Source: an uncultured Erysipelotrichaceae bacterium | GTDB lineage: Bacteria; Bacillota_I; Bacilli_A; Erysipelotrichales; Erysipelotrichaceae | Assembly (NCBI GenBank): GCA_964401865.1 | Contig: CAYNZZ010000002.1 | Location: 30,001 to 62,000 of the forward strand | Direction of reading: 5' to 3' | DNA: 32,000 nt | In this document: piece after piece, positions 7,950 through 30,107 of the stretch | How the letters are laid out: each line of letters opens with the position of its first letter | How positions within the stretch are numbered: position 1 is the stretch's first letter | Notes under the pieces: model-generated | What the model was told of the DNA's origin: nothing | The model's database searches: none | The model's input: only the letters and a program-made list of their open reading frames with translations | Program-made: the position numbers and the translations under genes

Positions 7950-8165
7950 ATGAACAAAATGAATGATTTATTGGATTCTTTAGTGTCCATCAGTAGTCTT
8001 AATCAAGGGAAAGCATCGAAAATTATTCAAAGCATAGGGCATGATGATGTAAAAATTGTTGTTAAAAACAATGAACCTATGGCTGCTATTATTTCTGTTT
8101 CTCGTTATAGCGAACTTATAGAGGCAGAAGAAAGACTTTTATCTTTGGAAGGAAGTAATAAATGA
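7950..8165 (+). CDS. Phd/YefM-like (type II antitoxin fold) small protein, orphan
   Basis: 71 aa. The core VSISSLNQGKASKIIQSI..DDVKIVVKNNEPMAAIISVSRYSELIEAEE follows the Phd/YefM N-domain pattern (sequence-specific-looking N-terminus, xxPvAvxxSxxxYexl). The TGA stop overlaps the next ATG. Confidence 0.6.
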   Translation: MNKMNDLLDSLVSISSLNQGKASKIIQSIGHDDVKIVVKNNEPMAAIISVSRYSELIEAEERLLSLEGSNK

Positions 8166-9121
8166 TGAAAAGAAAAATTAGGTATGACCGATTAGCATTG
8201 CTAGTTGGGATAGCGATTTCATTTCTATTAGTTATATTTTTAGGAATTAAATTATTATTCCTTAATGGAAATGATAAAAATCCTTCTAAGACCGATGATT
8301 CTGTAAATAGTACACCGAGTGGCGAGACTACAAATGATGTGAATTTCACTTTGGACGATTACAATATATATGCAAGTGATAAACTTGATTTTCGCTTTAT
8401 TGTTGCTGATATGACTGTTAAATCAAAAGATGGCAAAGGCATTGATTTTGAGATGTCAAAGTTGGAAACGAACGAATTAATTCAATTAAATAATATTGCA
8501 TCATATATTTCTAAGTTTCAAGAAGCTGGATATTCAATTGCGAAATTAAATTTAGCCGATAGCATTAAGAGTGATAGTAGTGAAATGAAAATTCGCCTTT
8601 TTATTCCAGTCACAAAAAGAACCGATTCATTAGTGCTAAACAATATGCTTAATTCTGAACAGATAACTTTTGACTTATCAAAAGAGGCTAAAGATATCGA
8701 AGAATTCAAAAACACCAGTGGAGAAGTAATTTCTGATGGTAAGTCATTTGATATTTATGTATCGAACGCTTATGTCAGTACTTCGATGTATCGAGATTCA
8801 CAAGAATATACTTATCCATCAACAATTAAAGTGTTTACTTATAAATTAAACATCAATAAACTCGAAAAAGAAGGAATTTCCATCGAAGAGGCTTATTTTA
8901 TACCTGATGGAACAGATGAAAAATATAAGGCTTTAGATGCATCTTTCTCTTCTTTGAAAGATGATAATATTATCGGTATTCCTTTAAAGGTCAATGATAC
9001 ATATGCTTTATTCTTTGAATTATACAATCCAGATGAGAATAACATCACTTATAATGGTAAATTACAATTGAAATTCTCGAACTCAGAACAAATAGTAGAA
9101 GTTTCTACAGTAATCCAATAG
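8162..9121 (+). CDS. Bitopic membrane protein with a beta-rich ectodomain (two DUF4352-like halves), function unknown
   Basis: N-terminal basic stretch plus one TM helix (LALLVGIAISFLLVIFLGIKLLF), a Ser/Thr/Asp-rich linker, then two segments with alternating beta-strand-like patterns. No catalytic motif recognised. Confidence 0.6.
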   Translation: MMKRKIRYDRLALLVGIAISFLLVIFLGIKLLFLNGNDKNPSKTDDSVNSTPSGETTNDVNFTLDDYNIYASDKLDFRFIVADMTVKSKDGKGIDFEMSKLETNELIQLNNIASYISKFQEAGYSIAKLNLADSIKSDSSEMKIRLFIPVTKRTDSLVLNNMLNSEQITFDLSKEAKDIEEFKNTSGEVISDGKSFDIYVSNAYVSTSMYRDSQEYTYPSTIKVFTYKLNINKLEKEGISIEEAYFIPDGTDEKYKALDASFSSLKDDNIIGIPLKVNDTYALFFELYNPDENNITYNGKLQLKFSNSEQIVEVSTVIQ

Positions 9122-19933: not shown

Positions 19934-19967
19934 AAAAGGATAGAAGATTACTCTTCTATCCTTTTTA
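19934..19967 (+). terminator. Strong intrinsic terminator after nifJ
   Basis: Perfect 14-bp stem AAAAGGATAGAAGA (19934-19947) / TCTTCTATCCTTTT (19952-19965) with loop TTAC. The T-run is included in the stem. Confidence 0.85.
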
Positions 19968-20016: not shown

Positions 20017-21816
20017 ATGTCTTTTTTACCAACTACTTATGAAGAAATGATAGAACAGGGGATAGAAACTCCTGATTTTGTATATGTTACTGGCGACGCC
20101 TATGTCGATCATCCATCTTTTGGGGCAGCTATTATTACCAGAATACTAGAAAATAGAGGTTATAAGGTTTGTGTTCTAGCTGAACCAGATTATAAAACTA
20201 ATAAAGATTTTAAACGTTTTGGTAAACCTCGTTTAGGTTTTTTGATTAGTGGCGGGAATATCGATTCAATGGTCAATAATTACAGTGTGGCAAAGATAAG
20301 GCGCAAACATGATGTTTATTCACACGATGGACTAAATCATCGACCTGATAGAGCTTTAATAGTATATAGTCAATTAGCCAGGAGTGCTTATCCTGATGCT
20401 GATATTTTGATTGGTGGCATTGAGTCAAGTCTTAGAAGATTGGCACATTATGATTATTGGGATGATGATTTAAGAAAGAGTGTTTTAATAGATAGTGGCG
20501 CTGATTTATTGATGTATGGAATGGGAGATATTTCTATTGTCGAGATAGCTGAAGCTTTGGATTCTGGTTTAAGAGCCAAAGATTTAGTTTACTTAGATGG
20601 CGTAGTCTATAAAACCGATGATATTTCATATTTGAGTGATGACTATATTGAACTTCCAAGTTTTAAGGAACTTAAAGAAGACAAACTGAATTATGCTAAG
20701 TCATTTAAGCTACAATATCAAAATACCGACCATTATAGTGCTAAGACTCTAGTAGAAAAGTATGATGATTTCTATATTGTACAGAATAGGCCTAATCGTC
20801 CGCTTACTCAAATGGAATTAGATGATACATATGAGCTTCCTTATGAAAGAGATTACCATTTTTCCTATAAACAAAAAGGAGAACACATATCATCTATTGA
20901 TGAAGTTAAATTCTCATTAGCGTCTAATCGCGGCTGTTTTGGTGGATGTTCGTTTTGTGCTTTAACTTTTCATCAGGGTAGAATAATTCAATCAAGATCG
21001 AAGGAATCGCTTGTTAAAGAAGCGATTAAATTAACTGAGATGGAAGACTTTAAAGGATATATTCACGATGTAGGTGGGCCAACTGCCAATTTCTATAATA
21101 AGGCTTGCGATAAACAAAAGAAATATGGCGTCTGCACTAATAGAGCGTGTCTGTCGCCACGCTGTCCAAATTTAAAAGTTTCTCACACTGATTACTTAGA
21201 TATTTTAAGAGCGATAAGAAGCATTGACGGAATCAAGAAAGTTTTTGTCAGAAGTGGAATAAGATATGATTATTTAATTTATGATGAAGATGAAACATTC
21301 TTTAATGAACTTGTTGAACATCATATTTCTGGTCAATTAAAGGTGGCTCCTGAACATATTGCTGACGAAGTACTAGATGTAATGGGCAAACCTCGTCATG
21401 ATGTATATGAATGCTTTAAGAAAAAATACGAAGAGATAAACAAGAGACATAATAAAGATCAGTACTTGGTTCCTTATTTGATGTCTTCACATCCTGGAAG
21501 CGACATCAATAGTGCCATTGCTTTGGCTGAATACTTGCGCGATATTCATTATCAACCAAAACAGGTACAGGATTTCTATCCGACTCCTTCAACTATTTCA
21601 ACAGTTATTTATTATACAGGCGTTCATCCTTTGACTAATAAAGAAGTATTTGTTGAAAAGAGTCCGCATGGCAAAGCGATTCAAAGAGCTTTGATGCAAT
21701 ATAAAAATCCAAAGAACTATTCATTGGTTTACGAAGCACTTGTGAAAGCTAATCGTTTAGATTTAGTTGGCTATGGTCCAAAATGTTTAATTAAACCTAG
21801 GAGGGTGAAAAAATGA
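20017..21816 (+). CDS. ygiQ: YgiQ family (UPF0313) radical SAM protein
   Basis: N-terminus FLPTTYEEM...VYVTGDAYVDHPSFGAAII is typical of the YgiQ N-domain. Radical SAM cluster motif CFGGCSFC (CX3CX2C). 599 aa. Confidence 0.88.
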   Translation: MSFLPTTYEEMIEQGIETPDFVYVTGDAYVDHPSFGAAIITRILENRGYKVCVLAEPDYKTNKDFKRFGKPRLGFLISGGNIDSMVNNYSVAKIRRKHDVYSHDGLNHRPDRALIVYSQLARSAYPDADILIGGIESSLRRLAHYDYWDDDLRKSVLIDSGADLLMYGMGDISIVEIAEALDSGLRAKDLVYLDGVVYKTDDISYLSDDYIELPSFKELKEDKLNYAKSFKLQYQNTDHYSAKTLVEKYDDFYIVQNRPNRPLTQMELDDTYELPYERDYHFSYKQKGEHISSIDEVKFSLASNRGCFGGCSFCALTFHQGRIIQSRSKESLVKEAIKLTEMEDFKGYIHDVGGPTANFYNKACDKQKKYGVCTNRACLSPRCPNLKVSHTDYLDILRAIRSIDGIKKVFVRSGIRYDYLIYDEDETFFNELVEHHISGQLKVAPEHIADEVLDVMGKPRHDVYECFKKKYEEINKRHNKDQYLVPYLMSSHPGSDINSAIALAEYLRDIHYQPKQVQDFYPTPSTISTVIYYTGVHPLTNKEVFVEKSPHGKAIQRALMQYKNPKNYSLVYEALVKANRLDLVGYGPKCLIKPRRVKK

Positions 21817-22244
21817 AAAAGAAAATAATATATGTATTATCTGCTCTTGCAGTATTGGTGTTTGCATTTGTAATATACTATTTTAATATCGAACAAAGAA
21901 AAGATAATGGCACTAAAACAATAAACATTAGTATTGTTGTCGAACAGAATGCAATATTTAGCGATTCTTTTAAGACTAATTCTTCAACACTTGAGGAATT
22001 GTTGGTTGAATTAAATGAAGAAGGAAAGATTTTTTTAGATTACGAAAATTCAGAATATGGTATGTACATTAAGGGTATGGGCAAAGAAGAATTAATAGTT
22101 GAGGATCCTTCATCATCTAAATATTGGACATATTCTTCTGATAATAACGATGATTGTTTAAAAAATGCTTTTTGTCCAGCTGCCAGCAGTTTGATAATAA
22201 ATGATGGAGATACGTTTGTTTTCGAATTGATAAAATATGAATGA
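21813..22244 (+). CDS. DUF4430 (transcobalamin-like C-terminal domain) protein with an N-terminal membrane anchor
   Basis: The ATGA start overlaps the ygiQ stop. One TM/signal-anchor helix, then the STLEELLVEL...GMYIKGMG...KYWTYSSDNN...LIINDGDTFVFEL pattern of DUF4430. Confidence 0.65.
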   Translation: MKKKIIYVLSALAVLVFAFVIYYFNIEQRKDNGTKTINISIVVEQNAIFSDSFKTNSSTLEELLVELNEEGKIFLDYENSEYGMYIKGMGKEELIVEDPSSSKYWTYSSDNNDDCLKNAFCPAASSLIINDGDTFVFELIKYE

Positions 22245-22731
22245 TATCAGAAGACTTGTTTATGATTCCGTTTTAGTATCTATATTAGTTGTGATAAAGG
22301 AAGCATTATCGTTTATCCCTAATGTCGAACTTGTCACCTTATTATTTATAGTCTATGCTTTGAATATGCGGATATTTGATTTATTACTGATATCTTTTGT
22401 ATTTTCACTTATCGAAAACATTTTGTATGGTTTTAATATTTATTCTCTTTGTTACTTTGTTGTGTGGGGGATAATTGTTTGTGTATCTTATCTTTTTAGA
22501 TATAAGCTTACCGATGAGTATAAAGTAGCTACATTGTCGCTGACTTTTGGCTTATTATTTGATGTTCCTTTTAGTATTCCATATTTTTTACTCGGCATAA
22601 ATGTTGGTATATCTTATTTATTGAGTGGCTTGTTATTTACATTAGTTCATGGCATTAGTAATTTTATAGTTGCTTTATTACTGTTTAAACCAATTAATTC
22701 AAGTTTTAAGAAATTATGTCAATTTAAATGA
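22237..22731 (+). CDS. Small polytopic membrane protein, ECF-transporter S-component-like
   Basis: 164 aa with about 5-6 hydrophobic helices and an IPNVELVTLL segment reminiscent of S-component families. Overlaps the DUF4430 gene by 8 nt. The assignment is tentative. Confidence 0.4.
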   Translation: MNDIRRLVYDSVLVSILVVIKEALSFIPNVELVTLLFIVYALNMRIFDLLLISFVFSLIENILYGFNIYSLCYFVVWGIIVCVSYLFRYKLTDEYKVATLSLTFGLLFDVPFSIPYFLLGINVGISYLLSGLLFTLVHGISNFIVALLLFKPINSSFKKLCQFK

Positions 22732-22758
22732 ATTGATGTTTATTGTATAATGATTTAT

Positions 22759-23784
22759 ATGAAAGTTTTGTTATATTTTGAAAATGAAAAAATGTTATCA
22801 ATTTCTGGAATTGGACGAGCAAAAAAACATCAGATGATGGCTTTGCAAAGTGCAGGAGTAGATTTTACTACTGATCCTTTTGATGATTTTGATATTTTAC
22901 ATATCAATACATGTTATTTAAATTCTGCTCCGATCATAAATAAAGCTCATAGTGAAGGCAAGGCGGTTATATATCACGCTCACTCTACTGAAGAAGATTT
23001 TCGCAATTCTTTTTTGTTCTCTAATCAAATATCTCCTCTTGTTAAGAAATTTTTGGTCGGTTTATATTCAAAAGCAGATGAAATTATTACACCGACACCA
23101 TATTCAAAAAAACTGTTAGAAGGTTATGGTATTAAATTACCTATTACCGCCATTTCTAACGGCATTGATTTAACAAGATTTCAATATGATGAAGAGAAAA
23201 TTAAGGCATTTTATCGTTATTTTGGCTTAAATAAAGAAGATAAAATCGTTATGAGCGTTGGACTACTTTTTGAAAGAAAAGGAATTCTGGATTTCTTCGA
23301 GGTAGCTAAACGATTGCCACAATATAAATTTATTTGGTTTGGTGATACGCCGTCAATTTCAATTCCACCAGCAATTAATAAAGCAGTTTTAGATCGCCCA
23401 ATAAATGTGATTATGCCCGGTTATGTAAAGGGTGGAATAATAGAAGGTGCTTATATGGCAAGCGATTGTTTCTTTTTCCCGTCTTATGAAGAAACCGAGG
23501 GCATTGTTGTACTAGAAGCGATGGCTTCAAAACAACATATTATCGTTCGTGATATTGGCGTTTTTGATGGTTGGCTTAATGATAAAGAAAATTGTTACAA
23601 AGGTAAAAATAACGATGAATTTGTTGAACTGATAACCGGAATTGTAGAAGGGAAATTAAATGATACTAGTGAAGGAGCTTATAATACCGCAAAGAATCGT
23701 TCGATTGAAAAAATTGGTCAAGAATTAAAAGTAGTTTACACTAGAGTTTATAATAATATGACATATGAAAAAAATATTCAGTAA
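22759..23784 (+). CDS. GT4 glycosyltransferase, CpoA/alDGS-like (second sugar of a diglycosyl-diacylglycerol)
   Basis: MKVLLYFENEKMLSISGIGRAKKHQMMAL N-terminus and EETEGIVVLEAMA (GT4 E-x7-E region). ATG 22750 is the alternative start and neither start has a Shine-Dalgarno sequence. TATAAT at 22746-22751. Confidence 0.75.
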   Translation: MKVLLYFENEKMLSISGIGRAKKHQMMALQSAGVDFTTDPFDDFDILHINTCYLNSAPIINKAHSEGKAVIYHAHSTEEDFRNSFLFSNQISPLVKKFLVGLYSKADEIITPTPYSKKLLEGYGIKLPITAISNGIDLTRFQYDEEKIKAFYRYFGLNKEDKIVMSVGLLFERKGILDFFEVAKRLPQYKFIWFGDTPSISIPPAINKAVLDRPINVIMPGYVKGGIIEGAYMASDCFFFPSYEETEGIVVLEAMASKQHIIVRDIGVFDGWLNDKENCYKGKNNDEFVELITGIVEGKLNDTSEGAYNTAKNRSIEKIGQELKVVYTRVYNNMTYEKNIQ

Positions 23785-24793
23785 TTATTTATTTAATATT
23801 CTGCTAATTTTAGGCATTGGAGCAATTGTAATATATTTTTCTCTATCTGGAAATGAAGAAGGAGTTTTTGAAGCCTTTAATAGCATTCGCATTGAATATA
23901 TGTTGTTGTGCTTATTGCTTTTATTTTTATGGCAATTTTCAGTTGGCTCAATACTTACAATTTTTGCGAAATTATACCGTCCTAAATATCGTTACTCACA
24001 AGGCTTATTGAATTCCATTGTCGCATCCTTTTTTCATGGTATTACACCTAGCGCATCAGGCGGACAGATTGCTCAATTTTATGTTTTTAAAAAACAGGGT
24101 ATTCAAACTGGTGAGGCTGGTTCAATTTTGTGGACTGAGTTTATTGTTTATCAAAGTACGATGTGTGTTTTAGGGTTGATATTGATTCTTTTGAAGTTTC
24201 CTTTTTTCTTTAATCGGTATTCAAATCTATTTATTTTTGTTATCGTGGGTTTTGTATTAAATGCTTCGATTATTTTTGCCTTGTACGCCTTAGCGAAATT
24301 CAAAAGAGTTCACAATTGGATAATGACAAAAGGTGTTGATTTAGCATATAAATTTCACATTATTAAAGATAAAGAAAAAGCTATTGATAGTATAAATGTG
24401 CAATTAAATAAGTTTACATATGAAGCTTCACATTTTAAAGAGCATAAAAAAGAACTGTTTTTTTCAGTTGTATTATGTGTGGTTAGATTAGTTATTTATT
24501 ATTCAATTCCATTTGTAATATTTGTAGCAATGGGCATCCATGCTGATTTTGATTTGTTTATTAATTGTTTGGCAATGGGTTCTTTTGTATCCATTGTTTC
24601 AGGACTTATTCCTATACCTGGTGCTAGTGGAGGAGCTGAAGCGATATTTGTTATGATGTTTAGCAATTTATTTGATCCTACCTTGGTTACAAGTGTTATG
24701 CTGATATGGCGTTTTTTGACCTATTATTTAATAATTTTGGTAGGCAGTTTGTGTTTTATATATGCAAAAATGATGAAAGTTGAGGAAGACTAA
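23765..24793 (+). CDS. UPF0104 / lysyl-phosphatidylglycerol-synthase-TM-region-like (flippase-like) membrane protein
   Basis: About 8 TM helices with GITPSASGGQIAQ and PIPGASGGAEA motifs typical of the MprF-flippase-like family. No C-terminal synthase domain. Overlaps the upstream GT4 gene by 20 nt. Confidence 0.75.
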   Translation: MKKIFSNYLFNILLILGIGAIVIYFSLSGNEEGVFEAFNSIRIEYMLLCLLLLFLWQFSVGSILTIFAKLYRPKYRYSQGLLNSIVASFFHGITPSASGGQIAQFYVFKKQGIQTGEAGSILWTEFIVYQSTMCVLGLILILLKFPFFFNRYSNLFIFVIVGFVLNASIIFALYALAKFKRVHNWIMTKGVDLAYKFHIIKDKEKAIDSINVQLNKFTYEASHFKEHKKELFFSVVLCVVRLVIYYSIPFVIFVAMGIHADFDLFINCLAMGSFVSIVSGLIPIPGASGGAEAIFVMMFSNLFDPTLVTSVMLIWRFLTYYLIILVGSLCFIYAKMMKVEED

Positions 24794-26784
24794 TGCGTGT
24801 TGCTTTATTTACTGATACATACTTGCCTGATGTAAATGGTGTAGTTACATCAATTGAACTGTTGCGTCAGGAACTAGAAAAAAACGGTCATGATGCATAT
24901 GTTGTATGTACTTATCCAGGCATTATGAAAATTAAACAAGATGGTAAGATTATTAGACTACCTGGCATTGAACTTAAACAATTGTATGGTTATGCCATGG
25001 CTAGTCCTATTCACTATCTTTTTATCGATGACCTAAAGAAGTTAAATTTTGATATTATTCATGTTCATACTGAATTCGGAGTTGGCATTTTCGCAAATAT
25101 AGTTGCTAAGCAACTACACATTCCACTTGTAAGAACGTATCATACTACATATGAAGATTATACACACTATATTAATTTTACTCATTTAGAAAGTATTGAT
25201 AAATTGGCGAAAAAGGCTGTTTCAGCCATTTCTAAGGCTTATGGAGATTCATGTATGCAATTAATTGCCCCATCGCGCAAAACTAAAAATATGTTACTTA
25301 GCTATGGAATAAAAACACCAATCTCTATCATTCCAACTGGTATAGAACTATCTAGATTTAAAAGAGAAAATACATCGATTGAGACAATTAAAAAGACAAG
25401 ATCAGAATTGGGTGTTAAAGACGATGAAAAAATGCTACTTTATGTCGGAAGAATCGCTCAAGAAAAATCTATTGATTTGATCATTAGAACTTTTAAGAAT
25501 ATAAAAGCTGATGGTCTTAAAGTAAAATTGGTTATTGTTGGTGGCGGACCGCAATTAGATGATTTAAAGAAAATGACTGATAATTACCAATTGAATGGTT
25601 ATATAGTTTTTGTGGGAAAAGTGCCATTTGATAATGTGCCGACTTATTATCATAGTGCTGATGCATTTATCAGTGCTTCAACTACTGAAACTCAAGGTAT
25701 GACATATATTGAAGCACTTTCTAGCGGGTTAGTTGTTTTTGCGCGCTATGATGAAGTTTTGGATGATATTGTATATGATAATGAAAATGGGTTCTTATTT
25801 AATGACGAAGAAGAATTGTTAGTTAAGATAAAAGAATTCTTATCATTAGATGACAGTCGAATAAATCAAATGTCTAAAAAATCAATTGAATCAACAATAA
25901 ATTATAATGCTGATATATTTGGTAAAAATATAATCGAGTTATATAACAAGGCTTTGAATGATTTTACCGATAATTATATAATCAGTGCTGTTCGTTTGAA
26001 AAGTGACTATGTGGTGATTGACATAACTTCTAGTAATGGTCAGGAAGAAAAAATTTATGTATCGCTTGATCAGTATTATGATTTTGGTCTTAGAAAAGAT
26101 GGGAAGCTAACTTTTAGTCAATATGATGAAATCAAGAAGAACGAAGGTTGTGTTTTGGCATATCGTGCTAGTTTAAAAAGATTAGCCAATCGAGATTATA
26201 CGGTTAAAGAAATGTATGATTATTTAAATAAGAATTATAATCTTGATATTAAACAAATCAATAAGATTATTGATAAGCTAATCGAAATTAATTTGTTAGA
26301 TGATTACCGTTATTGTTTATACAAGATCGAAACTTATGAAAAGGCCTTATATTCGCAAAAAAAGATTATTCAAAATTTGCGTAAAGTCGGTGTACCTTTA
26401 AATATCATTGAAGAACTTGTTATTGATAAAAAAGATGAAGATGAAGAATTCAATAAAGCGATGAAACTGGCTGAAAAATACCAGGCTCAGATTCATAACA
26501 AATCTTTAAATATGAAAAAACAGCTTATTTTTAAAAAACTGGTGCAAGAAGGTTTTGCGATAGATATAGCTAATAAGGCATTATCTTTATTGTCTTTTCA
26601 AGAGGAAACATTTGAAGAAAAGTTTTTGCTGCGCAAAGAGGCGAATAAAGCTAAATCAAGATTTGAAAAGAAGTATCATGGAACCGAATTGAGAAATAGA
26701 ATATATCATTCATTGGTATCAAAAGGTTTCAATATTGATGCAGTATATGCGATTTTAAATGAAATGGAGTGGAATGATGACTAA
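24793..26784 (+). CDS. Fusion protein: GT4 glycosyltransferase (alMGS-like monoglucosyl-diacylglycerol synthase type) joined to a full-length RecX-like C-terminal domain
   Basis: N-terminal about 390 aa: MRVALFTDTYLPDVNGVVTSI, ETQGMTYIEALSSG (GT4). C-terminal about 270 aa (from about nt 25966): IISAVRLKSDYVVIDI...YDFGLRKDGKLT...AYRASLKRLANRDYTVKEMYDYL...HSLVSKGFNIDAVYAILNEM follows the firmicute RecX layout. The frame is continuous with no stop or internal SD/ATG at the junction. Confidence 0.75.
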   Translation: MRVALFTDTYLPDVNGVVTSIELLRQELEKNGHDAYVVCTYPGIMKIKQDGKIIRLPGIELKQLYGYAMASPIHYLFIDDLKKLNFDIIHVHTEFGVGIFANIVAKQLHIPLVRTYHTTYEDYTHYINFTHLESIDKLAKKAVSAISKAYGDSCMQLIAPSRKTKNMLLSYGIKTPISIIPTGIELSRFKRENTSIETIKKTRSELGVKDDEKMLLYVGRIAQEKSIDLIIRTFKNIKADGLKVKLVIVGGGPQLDDLKKMTDNYQLNGYIVFVGKVPFDNVPTYYHSADAFISASTTETQGMTYIEALSSGLVVFARYDEVLDDIVYDNENGFLFNDEEELLVKIKEFLSLDDSRINQMSKKSIESTINYNADIFGKNIIELYNKALNDFTDNYIISAVRLKSDYVVIDITSSNGQEEKIYVSLDQYYDFGLRKDGKLTFSQYDEIKKNEGCVLAYRASLKRLANRDYTVKEMYDYLNKNYNLDIKQINKIIDKLIEINLLDDYRYCLYKIETYEKALYSQKKIIQNLRKVGVPLNIIEELVIDKKDEDEEFNKAMKLAEKYQAQIHNKSLNMKKQLIFKKLVQEGFAIDIANKALSLLSFQEETFEEKFLLRKEANKAKSRFEKKYHGTELRNRIYHSLVSKGFNIDAVYAILNEMEWNDD

Positions 26785-27712
26785 AAAAATAAAGGATTTT
26801 AAAGAGGGTGAACACGTTAATACTCTCTTGCTTCTAACTTCACTTGTTAAAGGAACGACCAATAATGGTGCTCCATACTTAACATTAGTTATTCAGGATG
26901 ATACTCAAAGTATTGAAGCGAAAATGTGGGATGTAAAACCGAATATTGAAAAGGAATTGGAAGTAGGGAAGGTATTTGAGTTTGACCTTGAGATAATTAA
27001 ATATCGAAACGCATTGCAAGCAAAAGTTATTAAAGTTTTGCCTGTTCAACAAAAAGATGTAAAGAAAGAAGATTTTATCTTTAAATCGCCAATTGAAAAA
27101 GAAGATTTACGTAAATTTATTCAAGACACTATTCACCGCATCAATAACTTGAAAATCGCTAAGATTGTCAGCTCGTGTTTAAAATATTATGAAAATGAAT
27201 TTTATGAGTATCCGGCTGCCAGTAAGATTCATCACAGTTTTATGGGTGGATTGGCAACTCATACTTATGGTATGTGTAAATTAGCTATTGCGATATGTGA
27301 TATTTATCCTGATTTGTCATCAGATTATCTGTTAGCTGGCGTTATTTTACACGATTTAGGAAAGATTGAAGAGTTATCTAGTCCGGTTGTTACTGAATAT
27401 ACCAAAGAGGGAAAACTACTTGGTCACATCTCGATTCTTCAAGCTCGTCTATTAGAAATAGGCAAAGAATTGCAGTTAGAAGACAGCGAAGAATTATTGA
27501 TTTTGAGACATATGGTTTTAGCTCATCATGGACAATATGAGTTTGGCTCGCCAGTAAGACCAGAAACTATTGAAGCTGAGATATTGTACTTAATTGATAA
27601 TATCGATGCAAGAATCAATACTATTCAAAAAGCTTTTGAACAAATTGAAGTTGGTGAATTTACGCCAAGATTATTCTCACTTGATAATCGTTCATTTTAT
27701 AAACATCAATAA
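26777..27712 (+). CDS. yhaM: 3'-5' exoribonuclease YhaM (OB-fold plus HD domain)
   Basis: IKDFKEGEHVNTLLLLTSLVKGTTNNGAPYLTLVIQDDTQSIEAKMWD (OB fold), then HHSFMGGLATHT and ILHDLGK (HD domain). GGAG at 26766-26769. The start overlaps the fusion gene's stop. ATG 26774 is an alternative start. Confidence 0.9.
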   Translation: MTKKIKDFKEGEHVNTLLLLTSLVKGTTNNGAPYLTLVIQDDTQSIEAKMWDVKPNIEKELEVGKVFEFDLEIIKYRNALQAKVIKVLPVQQKDVKKEDFIFKSPIEKEDLRKFIQDTIHRINNLKIAKIVSSCLKYYENEFYEYPAASKIHHSFMGGLATHTYGMCKLAIAICDIYPDLSSDYLLAGVILHDLGKIEELSSPVVTEYTKEGKLLGHISILQARLLEIGKELQLEDSEELLILRHMVLAHHGQYEFGSPVRPETIEAEILYLIDNIDARINTIQKAFEQIEVGEFTPRLFSLDNRSFYKHQ

Positions 27713-27804
27713 TATTTAAGTAAATGCCACAATAGTCACATAAGGTTTATGGAGGTATTTATTTTTCATGAATATAATTAAGAGTTAATGAAATCGGAAC
27801 ATTT

Positions 27805-27832
27805 AAAAAGGAGGACACTAGTCCTCCTTTTT
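27805..27832. terminator. Bidirectional intrinsic terminator between convergent yhaM and HIT genes
   Basis: AGGAGGAC (27809-27816), loop ACTA, GTCCTCCT (27821-27828), flanked by an A-run 5' and a T-run 3'. Confidence 0.85.
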
Positions 27833-27838
27833 AGAGCG

Positions 27839-28231
27839 TTATTTATTAATCTTTTCTAATAATGATTTTAAATCAAATTCATTTTCATGAAAGTTGATCT
27901 CGATTGTGTCGTTTTCGTCATATCTAGGAATGATATGAAAATGTAAGTGCATCACTGTTTGTCCGGCTATTTCATTGGTATTTACTAGCAGATTAAATCC
28001 TTTAGCATTTAAATTAGTAACGACCTTATTAGCAACTTCCTGAACCTTTACAATCATCTTTGCAAGTTCATCAGCAGGAATAGCTAAGACATTTTCGTAA
28101 TGCTTTTTAGGCATAACAAGTGTATGTCCTAAAGTAGTTTGCGAGATATCTAAGATAGCTAAAACATCATCATCTTCATAAATCTTGTATGATGGAATTT
28201 CGCCATCAATTATTTTGCAAAATACACACAT
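27839..28231 (-). CDS. HIT family (histidine triad nucleotide-binding) protein
   Basis: CVFCKII N-terminus and the histidine triad HLHFHIIPR. 130 aa. TAATG overlap with the upstream gene on the minus strand. Confidence 0.92.
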   Translation of the reverse strand: MCVFCKIIDGEIPSYKIYEDDDVLAILDISQTTLGHTLVMPKKHYENVLAIPADELAKMIVKVQEVANKVVTNLNAKGFNLLVNTNEIAGQTVMHLHFHIIPRYDENDTIEINFHENEFDLKSLLEKINK

Positions 28232-29103
28232 TATTTTAATGACTCATATTGAGAACTAACTAAATCGTAAGTTCTTTGATCGTAGAATTGGATATCGTGT
28301 TTACCAAAGAAGTAGTTAATAGCATCAGCTAATTCAAATTTATTTAATAATGTTTCAATAAATTCATCTTTAAAGTTACTAGCATCTCTATCAATGATAT
28401 TTATAACATAGTATCTAGTTTCAGCGACTTCATTACCAGTACTATCAGTAGTAGTTGTTGAAGTATTGATAATATCTGATAAACCAATTTTGGTAGTGTC
28501 GGCATTTAGATATTCCTTGATTTCGATTGCAAGTGAATCGCTATCTAAATAAACTTTAGCACTTGCATCACTTGAATAACCATTACTCGATACAACTTCA
28601 GTGAAATCTTTACCTGCATTAACTTCTTCAATTACTTTATTTGCTGTGTCGAGATCAGAAAAGTAAGCTAATTGCATTTTAACAGGTTTGTTTTCATCTG
28701 CGTATTGGTCAAAGTTTAAATCGATGTATTGATTAGCTAATTCTTCAGAACAAATTGAAGCTACTATATTTTCTTTAAGAGCATCTTTTCCACCGTAGTA
28801 GTATTCAAGTTGACTATAGTATGAACCATAAGTCTGTTCCATCATTTCTAATCTTTCATCAGCTTGTTTTTCTACTTCTTCCAAGTCGATTCCTTCTGTT
28901 TGGCTGACTTTAGCAATTAATTTATTGATAATAATCGCTGAGTAATCGTTGTTTTGCATTGAAGTAAATAAGTCTTGCTTAGTGACATTTTCCTTTTCTT
29001 TGCTGATGATAATTTCATCACCACCGCTAACAAGTACTTTTTCTGAATTTGAACAAGCAGATAATAATAGAACGGATAATATTCCAATTAATAATTTTTT
29101 CAT
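28231..29103 (-). CDS. PrsA-like lipoprotein with a degenerate parvulin-like region
   Basis: Lipobox LLSAC after a signal peptide. The central region follows the parvulin layout (AGKDFTEVV...), but both conserved His positions are replaced (MQLAYF instead of SHILV, RYYVINII instead of GYHIIK). Confidence 0.6.
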   Translation of the reverse strand: MKKLLIGILSVLLLSACSNSEKVLVSGGDEIIISKEKENVTKQDLFTSMQNNDYSAIIINKLIAKVSQTEGIDLEEVEKQADERLEMMEQTYGSYYSQLEYYYGGKDALKENIVASICSEELANQYIDLNFDQYADENKPVKMQLAYFSDLDTANKVIEEVNAGKDFTEVVSSNGYSSDASAKVYLDSDSLAIEIKEYLNADTTKIGLSDIINTSTTTTDSTGNEVAETRYYVINIIDRDASNFKDEFIETLLNKFELADAINYFFGKHDIQFYDQRTYDLVSSQYESLK

Positions 29104-30107
29104 TATTCTGCCTCGCTTTCGTTTAATCTGGTTTCTAATTCGCTCTTAAATCCTTCGTCTACAATGTTGATATTCAATTCTTGAGCTTTTTCCAGGATGA
29201 TTTGAGCGTATAGATTTGAATGAAGATCAAACAGTTGTGATATGAAGTCTTGATTATCCAATAAAGTATCGACAGTTGAAGCATTACATTTGATGATATG
29301 ATAACCAAATTGAGTTACGATGACATCGCTAACTTCGCCTTCATTTAATTTCATTGATGCATCAGCGAATTCACTAACATATTTTGATTTGCTGTCTTCA
29401 TCAATTAAACCTAAATATCCACCATTGGTATTGCTTGAATCTTCTGAGTAGTCATATGCAACCTGAGCGAAATCTTCGCTTTGAAGTTTTTCTAATACCT
29501 CGTTTAATTTTGCGGTTTCTTCTTCAGTTGGATTAGCTTTATGAGTTACTGTTCCATCTTCGTTTTTAATCTCTTCTACATCTGCAACTTTAATCAAGAT
29601 ATGTGAAATAGTTCTTGGAGATTTTTCCATATATGGAGTAACATATTCTTCTTCGTGAGCTAAGAAATATTCTTTTGATAAAGCGTAATTCTTTTGCAGA
29701 TAAATATAATAGTTCGCAAGATCATCAATACCATTAAATCCCAATGAACGCAGATCGGCATCTAATGTATCTCTGTCATAAGAACTTAGTAGATATTGAG
29801 CATTATTACTAGCTACAGTTTTCATTTCACTAGTTGTATCAACGGCACTTTCAACTACCAATCTATCAAGTGCTCTATATGATGAATCAAAACCATATCT
29901 TGAATATAGTTCATCGTATAATTCATCAGCATAATATGACTCGCCATCGATGCTGTATATGACATATGAATCGTCTTGTTTTAAAGTTTTGATTTCTTTT
30001 TCGCTATTAGCATTCATTTCAACGGCGTAGAAGATGACAAATACTACTGCTAATATTGCTAATGTAAAGACAAACCAATACTTTTTGATTAAATCTTTTG
30101 TTTTCAT
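29103..30107 (-). CDS. Membrane-anchored parvulin-type peptidyl-prolyl isomerase (PrsA/PpiC-like)
   Basis: N-terminal TM anchor with no lipobox Cys. Intact parvulin motifs SHILIKV, GGYLGLI and FGYHIIKC. AGGAGG is present upstream (CCTCCT at 30113-30118 on the + strand). Confidence 0.85.
   Translation of the reverse strand: MKTKDLIKKYWFVFTLAILAVVFVIFYAVEMNANSEKEIKTLKQDDSYVIYSIDGESYYADELYDELYSRYGFDSSYRALDRLVVESAVDTTSEMKTVASNNAQYLLSSYDRDTLDADLRSLGFNGIDDLANYYIYLQKNYALSKEYFLAHEEEYVTPYMEKSPRTISHILIKVADVEEIKNEDGTVTHKANPTEEETAKLNEVLEKLQSEDFAQVAYDYSEDSSNTNGGYLGLIDEDSKSKYVSEFADASMKLNEGEVSDVIVTQFGYHIIKCNASTVDTLLDNQDFISQLFDLHSNLYAQIILEKAQELNINIVDEGFKSELETRLNESEAE

Follow-up and report, generated by a model that had tools for sequence, protein, structure and literature searches.

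How might RecX, a potent regulator of RecA, have come to be encoded as the tail of an apparent glycolipid synthase, and does the attachment matter? To our knowledge, every RecX studied so far is a small soluble protein. In the window (the whole stretch of 32,000 nucleotides that was analysed), positions 24793..26784 of the (+) strand hold a single ATG-initiated open reading frame of 663 aa plus stop, the fused gene mgs::recX, as judged from the ORF itself, Pfam, NCBIfam and a homologue search. Its first part is a complete GT4 glycosyltransferase resembling monoglucosyl-diacylglycerol synthases (aa 1-392), its second a complete long-form firmicute RecX (aa 395-663). Pfam recognizes Glyco_transf_4 at aa 14-188 and Glycos_transf_1 at aa 200-361, as well as RecX_HTH1 at aa 456-481 and RecX_HTH3 at aa 612-655, all above their gathering scores, and no second RecX-family match was found among the window's ORFs of at least 90 aa. 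The first-pass annotation of this DNA had proposed that one frame joins two complete modules and that the window carries no other recX; the Pfam and NCBIfam searches bear out the former, the scan of the remaining ORFs the latter. We consider it likely that the gene encodes a real, anciently fused bifunctional protein, whose C-terminal 270 residues are the ordinary RecX of the lineage, made solely as an extension of an active GT4 glycolipid synthase of the Mgs/BgsB type.

Could a sequencing or assembly error have merged two adjacent genes? Of 13 related loci, two are broken: in one (L002), on a MAG contig of 1.9 kb, 97 nt are deleted and the frame is shifted, and the other (L007) carries two in-frame stop codons. 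Against such an error, assemblies from NCBI, ENA, JGI and Logan yield more than 120 independent clusters with the same uninterrupted ORF and junction, and the GC content is even across the junction. In a search of 5.8 billion proteins, the best 120 clusters (90% identity) are 649-669 aa long and align to 98-100% of the query with identities of 44-100%. Among representatives at 50% identity, the fusion is present in about 25 of the best 150. Genome contigs were searched with a pattern built from a 6-sequence alignment (a 20-sequence alignment was too divergent, and the RecX half alone matched nothing), and at 11 of the 13 named genome loci, from Erysipelotrichaceae and Thomasclavelia, the gene is one uninterrupted ORF. 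Anaerorhabdus furcosa and Ca. Fimiplasma are, with Thomasclavelia spp., among the carriers of the fusion. The architecture is thus shared by relatives in at least 120 clusters and 11 of 13 loci; this recurrence refutes an artefact, to which we attach next to no probability. With proteins 68-74% identical, synonymous sites have reached saturation. The L002 locus was also considered as a possible ancestral two-gene state and rejected, given that its deletion is evident against an intact relative with 92% identity.

How is the RecX part translated? A Shine-Dalgarno sequence GAGGA (24782-24786) precedes the ATG of the fusion (24782..24795, (+); pairing -5.8 kcal/mol), and this ATG overlaps the stop codon of the upstream flippase-like gene (TAATG). 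Translation would begin at ATG 24793, within a tightly coupled unit. In the structure model, the glycosyltransferase ends in a helix at aa 373-392 and RecX opens with a strand at aa 395 (nt 25975), which leaves a link of two residues (aa 393-394; 25969..25974, (+)) that is apparent from both alignment and model. The RecX start proposed earlier, near nt 25966, was right to within a few codons. Across the fusion family the alignment columns at the junction are essentially gap-free. Neither the window's fusion nor nine fused relatives have a stop codon, a frameshift or an in-frame start with a convincing Shine-Dalgarno sequence at the junction, just as had been read from the window's sequence. 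A promoter scan was at chance level (43 against 47.8); a promoter match of 10/12 positions lying on the junction at 25954-25982 was discounted, because the codons there are not conserved.

The locus around the fusion has the appearance of a tightly coupled transcription unit with the order ygiQ, two small ORFs, a bgsA-like glycosyltransferase, the flippase-like gene, mgs::recX and yhaM. Its probable 5' limit is a terminator-like hairpin after the pyruvate:ferredoxin oxidoreductase-type gene PFOR (19934..19965, (+)), and its probable end a strong terminator-like hairpin with a 15-bp stem after yhaM (27802..27835, (+)), both found by hairpin search. The upstream glycosyltransferase (22750..23784, (+)) belongs to the IagA/BgsA family of LTA glycolipid-anchor enzymes (494 bits, cut-off 460), and the flippase-like membrane protein (23765..24793, (+)) is assigned by Pfam and family models to the LPG_synthase_TM family. 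Downstream, a YhaM-like 3'-5' exoribonuclease with OB and HD domains, identified by family models (26777..27712, (+)), overlaps the 3' end of the fusion. Its Shine-Dalgarno sequence (GGAG) and its start (ATG 26774 or 26777), read from the sequence at 26766..26779 (+), are embedded in the codons for the conserved C-terminus of the fusion, E-M-E-W-N-D-D. A search for LexA/Cheo-box sites (GAAC-N4-GTTC, at most one mismatch) returned 8 matches against 7.4 expected, none of them placed at a promoter, and thus gives no evidence for SOS control of the locus.

What would the first module do? The glycosyltransferase (24793..25968, (+)) is a GT-B fold enzyme of the Mgs/BgsB kind according to Pfam, NCBIfam, the structure model and Foldseek. 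By far its top-scoring family is the NCBIfam model of alpha-monoglucosyldiacylglycerol synthase, NF049988, which it matches over aa 1-389 (model positions 1-389 of 398) with 306 bits, below the equivalog cut-off of 400 bits. Foldseek aligns it with the retaining GT4 structures MshA, BshA, PimA and PimB' at a target TM of up to 0.82. G219-R220, K225, E299 and E307 are invariant across 74 fusions, including the E299-x7-E307 catalytic motif of retaining GT4 enzymes (25687..25713, (+)). The N-domain is basic (pI 8.9), the C-domain acidic (pI 4.8), and no transmembrane segment was found in the module; these features are consistent with peripheral membrane association and UDP-Glc:DAG transfer, and a glycolipid pathway is also suggested by the IagA/BgsA-family enzyme and the flippase-like protein immediately upstream. 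With the alpha-monoglucosyl-diacylglycerol synthases alMGS of Acholeplasma laidlawii and BgsB of Enterococcus faecalis, the module has in common a match to the Mgs model over its full length, the GT-B fold, E-x7-E, and a basic N-domain and an acidic C-domain without transmembrane segments; the fusion's operon also includes a second glycosyltransferase, of the BgsA family. The fusion differs from them in its 270 additional C-terminal residues of RecX and in its lower score. alMGS is a monotopic enzyme anchored by its basic N-domain (PMC6506492). By homology to alMGS and BgsB, the module would make monoglucosyl-diacylglycerol at the inner face of the membrane and be held there by its basic N-domain. 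Since both modules score below the NCBI equivalog cut-offs, exact substrate and activity, including donor and acceptor specificity, are what we infer from such comparisons.

The second module has the complete architecture of a long-form RecX: a three-stranded beta subdomain with a short helix at its N-terminus (aa 395-431; 25975..26085, (+); NCBIfam and structure model), followed by four three-helix repeats (aa 441-657; 26113..26763, (+); Pfam, structure model and Foldseek). RecX_HTH1 scores 30.9-35.4 bits and RecX_HTH3 31.2-34.2 bits, with a Pfam cut-off of 26; RecX_HTH2 is called by Pfam in relatives but not in the window's protein, where its helices are present in the structure model. The firmicute RecX model PRK14135 aligns over aa 409-659 (model positions 19-264 of 267), with 117-120 bits against a cut-off of 240.

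Might the repeats then have been co-opted for a role away from DNA, as the first-pass annotation had offered as an alternative? RecA control would have been lost, and the module would now regulate or scaffold the synthesis of glycolipids or LTA anchors, or act on RNA together with YhaM. The low equivalog score is in keeping with this idea, as are the operon shared with envelope genes and the constant linkage and translational coupling to yhaM, an exoribonuclease homologue. However, the PRK14135 cut-off is missed as well by this lineage's free and relic orthologues (82-157 bits), and because its free RecX proteins score equally low, the divergence marks the whole lineage rather than the fusion. 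The RecX fold and length are fully kept, and the only significant PDB matches of this half in Foldseek are the RecX structures 3D5L, 3E3V, 3C1D and 3DFG (E 6.5e-10 to 8e-4, target TM 0.77-0.82), 3E3V being recovered also by phmmer at E = 1.6e-8. Free orthologues and relics moreover retain the module with no glycolipid genes nearby. Given the module's positional orthology with free recX, the preserved recX-yhaM linkage and the survival of the module after loss of the glycosyltransferase, we rate co-option as the less likely reading and give it little credence.

An ordinary RecX is therefore the identity that we favour for the tail, and the comparison with Bacillus subtilis RecX (YfhG; PRK14135) is instructive. 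Both belong to the class of about 265 aa in which a beta subdomain at the N-terminus precedes three-helix repeats in tandem, but the fused RecX lacks a separate start codon, is the C-terminal part of an enzyme of 76 kDa, stays under the equivalog cut-off and is linked to yhaM, a linkage that we take to be absent in B. subtilis. By homology, the module would fold on its own, bind to filaments of RecA and favour their disassembly. B. subtilis RecX, a protein of 264 aa, acts as a modulator of RecA threads; in competent cells it forms foci at the poles (PMC3527212).

Where does the fusion come from? In related genomes whose PFOR is 73-77% identical to that of the window, the same chromosomal position is occupied by three forms: a free form, PFOR-recX-yhaM (L024-L028), the fused form, PFOR-mgs::recX-yhaM (L007, L008, L010), and a relic form, PFOR-relic::recX-yhaM (L030). 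The slot PFOR ... recX-yhaM-HIT-prsA is common to the relatives with free recX, and yhaM is the constant partner of recX in every form. The fused RecX half is the positional orthologue of the ordinary stand-alone recX. The relic of Solobacterium moorei (WP_449136780.1), like other relic-RecX proteins of 366-463 aa, has yhaM downstream and keeps the MRI... start and the last glycosyltransferase helix before a full RecX module; in contrast to the fusions, the glycosyltransferase core of these proteins is deleted or decayed, in frame in S. moorei, and no glycosyltransferase family is detected. They are natural experiments in which RecX outlives the enzyme. Matches of about 268 aa that look like stand-alone RecX (for example P0130) were set aside as fragments on contigs of about 1 kb, whose clusters also hold glycosyltransferase pieces.

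In a tree of RecX sequences, free and relic forms nest among the fused ones in 79-95% of 200 bootstraps, which implies that the fusion came first and that the glycosyltransferase part was lost repeatedly. At the base of the tree, the separation of the fused clade from the outgroup is unsupported (3 of 200 bootstraps), so that the argument for a single origin comes from the common junction and the nesting. We envision that mgs was placed immediately 5' of recX-yhaM and that the stop codon and spacer were lost once, after which several lineages would have lost or eroded the glycosyltransferase part while keeping RecX. In this, the gene resembles Rosetta-stone fusions, in which stop codon and spacer disappear between co-transcribed neighbours and split and fused states coexist in relatives. 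It departs from the typical case in that its partners serve membrane lipid synthesis and recombination control and in that it persists across a whole order; we know of no functional link between these two pathways.

Does the tether then matter? The fusion is dispensable in some lineages, which had not been foreseen, and the repeated loss of the glycosyltransferase indicates that the tether is not essential. Conceivably, the fusion concerns expression only, with a protease or low-level internal initiation releasing a soluble RecX and the tether having no role. The free RecX found at the same locus in close relatives, the losses themselves and the structure model of the fusion, whose pTM of 0.58 and want of a defined interface suggest no fixed contact between the modules, would all accord with such a release. 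Yet no internal Shine-Dalgarno sequence and start are conserved in the ten fused genes, and the length-invariant helix-to-strand link of about two residues would make a poor protease site. Decay of the glycosyltransferase in frame, with its start retained, is in turn expected if RecX depends on that start; it also lends indirect support to the earlier proposal that RecX is made only as a fusion. We regard a purely expression-related fusion as improbable. Were the tether neutral all the same, the locus would offer a clean, datable Rosetta-stone fusion between unrelated pathways, in which dependence on an upstream start forces a dead domain to decay in frame.

If RecX is made only as the tail of the enzyme, as we favour, it would be produced 1:1 with the glycosyltransferase and be confined to the membrane periphery; the proposal of the first-pass annotation, that RecA control may in this way be tied to the membrane, is plausible. 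A further step would be that the tether is functional: confinement of RecX to the membrane surface by a monotopic glycolipid synthase would control RecA filaments by location, either sparing filaments in the nucleoid or striking RecA at membrane sites of DNA uptake, and would couple RecX dosage to envelope-lipid synthesis. We hold this stronger version to be rather unlikely; if it were true, it would amount to a previously unknown spatial, membrane-linked layer of control over recombination, the SOS response or transformation in a major gut-bacterial group. Close relatives that carry RecX at this locus in fused, relic-fused or free form are natural controls for these alternatives. Either way, in the Erysipelotrichales, an entire order of bacteria common in the gut and mouth, RecX appears to be joined to a membrane enzyme, and no route to a free form is obvious.

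The first-pass annotation was also not aware of any description of this architecture. Our literature searches found no paper on a GT4-RecX fusion, but hundreds of its members are already deposited in databases, automatically annotated either as 'RecX family transcriptional regulator' or as 'glycosyltransferase', and each of these names conceals half of the protein.

The first-pass annotation had proposed that a glycolipid glycosyltransferase of the GT4 type and a firmicute RecX are joined in one uninterrupted 663-aa ORF (window 24793-26784, + strand), and our searches confirm this. Pfam matches above the gathering score cover both halves (Glyco_transf_4, aa 14-188; Glycos_transf_1, aa 200-361; RecX_HTH1, aa 456-481; RecX_HTH3, aa 612-655). 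Full-length NCBIfam matches identify the alpha-monoglucosyldiacylglycerol synthase model Mgs (aa 1-389, model 1-389 of 398) and the firmicute RecX model PRK14135 (aa 409-659, model 19-264 of 267), with scores of 306 and 117-120 bits that fall short of the respective curated cut-offs for equivalogs (400 and 240 bits). The ATG of this gene, mgs::recX, follows a GAGGA motif and overlaps the stop codon of the preceding gene (TAATG). Consistent with the earlier claim of no other recX in the window, the remaining ORFs of at least 90 aa yielded no second RecX-family match.

In an AlphaFold2 model of the full fusion, built on 74 fusions (mean pLDDT 87.4, pTM 0.58), the GT half adopts a GT-B fold, whose last helix (373-392) is connected by a two-residue link to the RecX strand starting at 395; three beta strands (395-424), a short helix and four three-helix repeats (441-657) make up the RecX half. 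Modelled alone, the latter reaches a pLDDT of 95.5 and a pTM of 0.83, and its significant PDB matches, six chains in total, all belong to four RecX crystal entries (3D5L, 3E3V, 3C1D, 3DFG), with 3E3V also retrieved by sequence search at E = 1.6e-8. The GT half matches the retaining GT4 structures MshA, BshA, PimA and PimB' (target TM <=0.82), and its residues G219-R220, K225 and E299-x7-E307 are invariant in 74/74 fusions. No TM segment was found in the GT half; it combines a basic N-domain (pI 8.9) with an acidic C-domain (pI 4.8), a charge asymmetry also reported for the monotopic enzyme alMGS (PMC6506492).

Might the fusion be an artefact? Its recurrence excludes this. Among the matches listed in a search of 5.8 billion proteins, 120/120 clusters share the architecture (649-669 aa, 98-100% query coverage, 44-100% identity), and they are drawn from NCBI, ENA, JGI and Logan assemblies. 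Alignment of the fusions shows gap fractions of only 0.00-0.01 at the junction (aa 381-420), with mean conservation of 0.65 in the GT half and 0.54 in the RecX half, and GC content is even across the junction. A genome scan recovered 14 loci in MAGs assigned to Erysipelotrichaceae and Thomasclavelia; the junction was examined in 13 of these, and in 11 one open frame contains a full-length fusion of 660-689 aa. The two exceptions are of different kinds. Compared with the intact, 92%-identical L001, locus L002 lacks 97 nt, a deletion with 7 nt of microhomology (749-755) that takes away the GT's end and causes a frameshift; on a contig of only 1.9 kb, a true deletion is indistinguishable from an assembly defect. 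L007 has two in-frame stops in the GT N-terminus (L007 3822-3945; codon 22, TAA for Glu; codon 39, TAG for Cys) in an otherwise intact gene, reflecting either low-coverage sequencing error or GT decay at an early stage. The taxonomic range of the fusion is only loosely defined, because its most divergent named carrier, Ca. Fimiplasma, is placed by NCBI taxonomy in Eubacteriales incertae sedis.

Is RecX made only as part of the fusion, as had been inferred? In ten fused genes scanned for in-frame start codons (ATG, GTG, TTG) that have SD pairing, no conserved start exists near codons 390-410, and the best internal candidates vary in position between genomes and mostly pair weakly; at the sequence level, the inference therefore stands. 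Free RecX could possibly be released by proteolysis or cryptic initiation, a route that the sequence does not favour. A sigma-70-like 10/12 match (TTGAAT-17-TATAAT) lies exactly at the junction (25954-25982); promoter-like matches in this AT-rich region are overall at chance level, and the codons concerned are not conserved.

Among the best 150 representatives of 1068 RecX-half relatives (exhaustive HMMER search, E <= 0.001), about 25 are full fusions and a second class comprises RecX proteins that are truly free (260-290 aa). A further recurrent class of 366-463 aa mostly begins like the GT (MRI plus hydrophobic residues) and has, ahead of a complete RecX, only weak N-domain remnants and the last GT helix, with no match to a GT family; a Solobacterium moorei member (WP_449136780.1, 384 aa) belongs to a cluster found on contigs of up to 2.23 Mb. 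In these relics, the GT has decayed in frame with the GT start kept, as expected if RecX lacks its own. Two shorter proteins from this search, P0146 (241 aa) and P0166 (146 aa), join a TM-like hydrophobic N-terminus (e.g. FFVIVFSIFFIAIPILIIINNI) to the C-terminal part of RecX only, and could be artefacts of gene calling on fragments or represent an alternative membrane anchor for part of RecX.

Genomic look-ups place the fused, free and relic forms at one orthologous locus, with a PFOR gene 73-77% identical to that of the window wherever the locus includes it. The order is PFOR-recX-yhaM in L024-L028, PFOR-mgs::recX-yhaM in L007, L008 and L010, and PFOR, further genes, bgsA-like, flippase-like, mgs::recX and yhaM in the window, L001 and L003. 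L030 reads glucosaminidase-PASTA-PFOR-relic::recX-yhaM-HIT-two PrsA-like genes-ABC, and the Solobacterium-type L023 has unrelated genes before relic::recX-yhaM. The fused RecX is thus the positional orthologue of ordinary recX, and the stable unit is recX-yhaM. Distant free recX genes of other Bacillota (L015, L016 from Fundicoccus, L017-L022) have neither yhaM after them nor mgs nearby, which suggests that the pairing is confined to the Erysipelotrichales-type lineage. An NJ analysis of 120 RecX modules joins every free or relic form tested to a subset of the fused forms, with the outgroup left outside in 79-95% of 200 bootstraps; support for the deepest split is lacking (3/200). This grouping, together with the identical junction, favours a single early fusion followed by repeated loss of the GT part.

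What might such a fusion do? The sequence analysis shows a single ORF with two complete conserved modules, the lack of a conserved internal start, orthology to free recX and a glycolipid operon context. By homology, the GT module would make monoglucosyl-DAG on the cytoplasmic side of the membrane, and the RecX module would bind RecA filaments and promote their disassembly, as does B. subtilis RecX, which forms polar foci in competent cells (PMC3527212, PMC5587729). RecX would then be produced 1:1 with the enzyme and kept near the membrane. The RecX module is unlikely to have been co-opted for a non-DNA role, since it is orthologous to free recX and survives without the GT. The RecX tether may be adaptive or may be an accident that is tolerated: its long persistence and the fixed link argue that it is of some value, and repeated loss that it is not essential. 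We see a minority chance that mgs::recX uncovers spatial control of RecA. The two domains are each well known. The suggestion that their combination was undescribed holds for the literature searched (8.3 million papers), in which we found no account of it, but the architecture is already deposited in public databases under automated names, such as 'RecX family transcriptional regulator [Erysipelotrichaceae bacterium]' and 'glycosyltransferase [Anaerorhabdus furcosa]'.

The gene lies between two strong terminator-like hairpins, one downstream of PFOR (19934-19965) and the other downstream of yhaM (27802-27835); the stretch that they enclose has no hairpin of similar strength (14-15-bp stem). 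This unit starts with ygiQ (radical SAM), followed by two small overlapping ORFs of 143 and 164 aa (21813-22731), an LTA-anchor glycosyltransferase of the IagA/BgsA family (494 bits, cut-off 460), a flippase-like membrane protein, mgs::recX itself and yhaM (full-length match, 352 bits); consecutive genes overlap by 1-20 nt. Both small ORFs lack a Pfam family and are kept in L001 and L003, and the 164-aa product looks like a multi-pass membrane protein. At 26761-26784, GAAATGGAGTGGAATGATGAC encodes the conserved fusion C-terminus E-M-E-W-N-D-D and also carries the yhaM SD (GGAG) and ATG start(s), so conservation of this tail may reflect a dual constraint, coding and translational. A search for LexA boxes gave no signal. 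Elsewhere the window carries housekeeping chromosome, with tsf, pyrH, frr, uppS, cdsA, dxr, rseP and glucosaminidase, PASTA, MatE, ATP-grasp and PFOR genes, then HIT, PrsA-like proteins and Suf. A 319-aa ORF without a Pfam family (8162-9121) lies just upstream of the 991-aa glucosaminidase-domain protein and the kinase-less PASTA-domain protein. On the minus strand, 28231-29103 and 29103-30107 form a tandem pair of lipoprotein-like genes, one with PPIase (PrsA) domains; the other, with a lipobox-like LLSAC, no Pfam match and a place beside PrsA in relatives, may be a degenerate PrsA paralogue.
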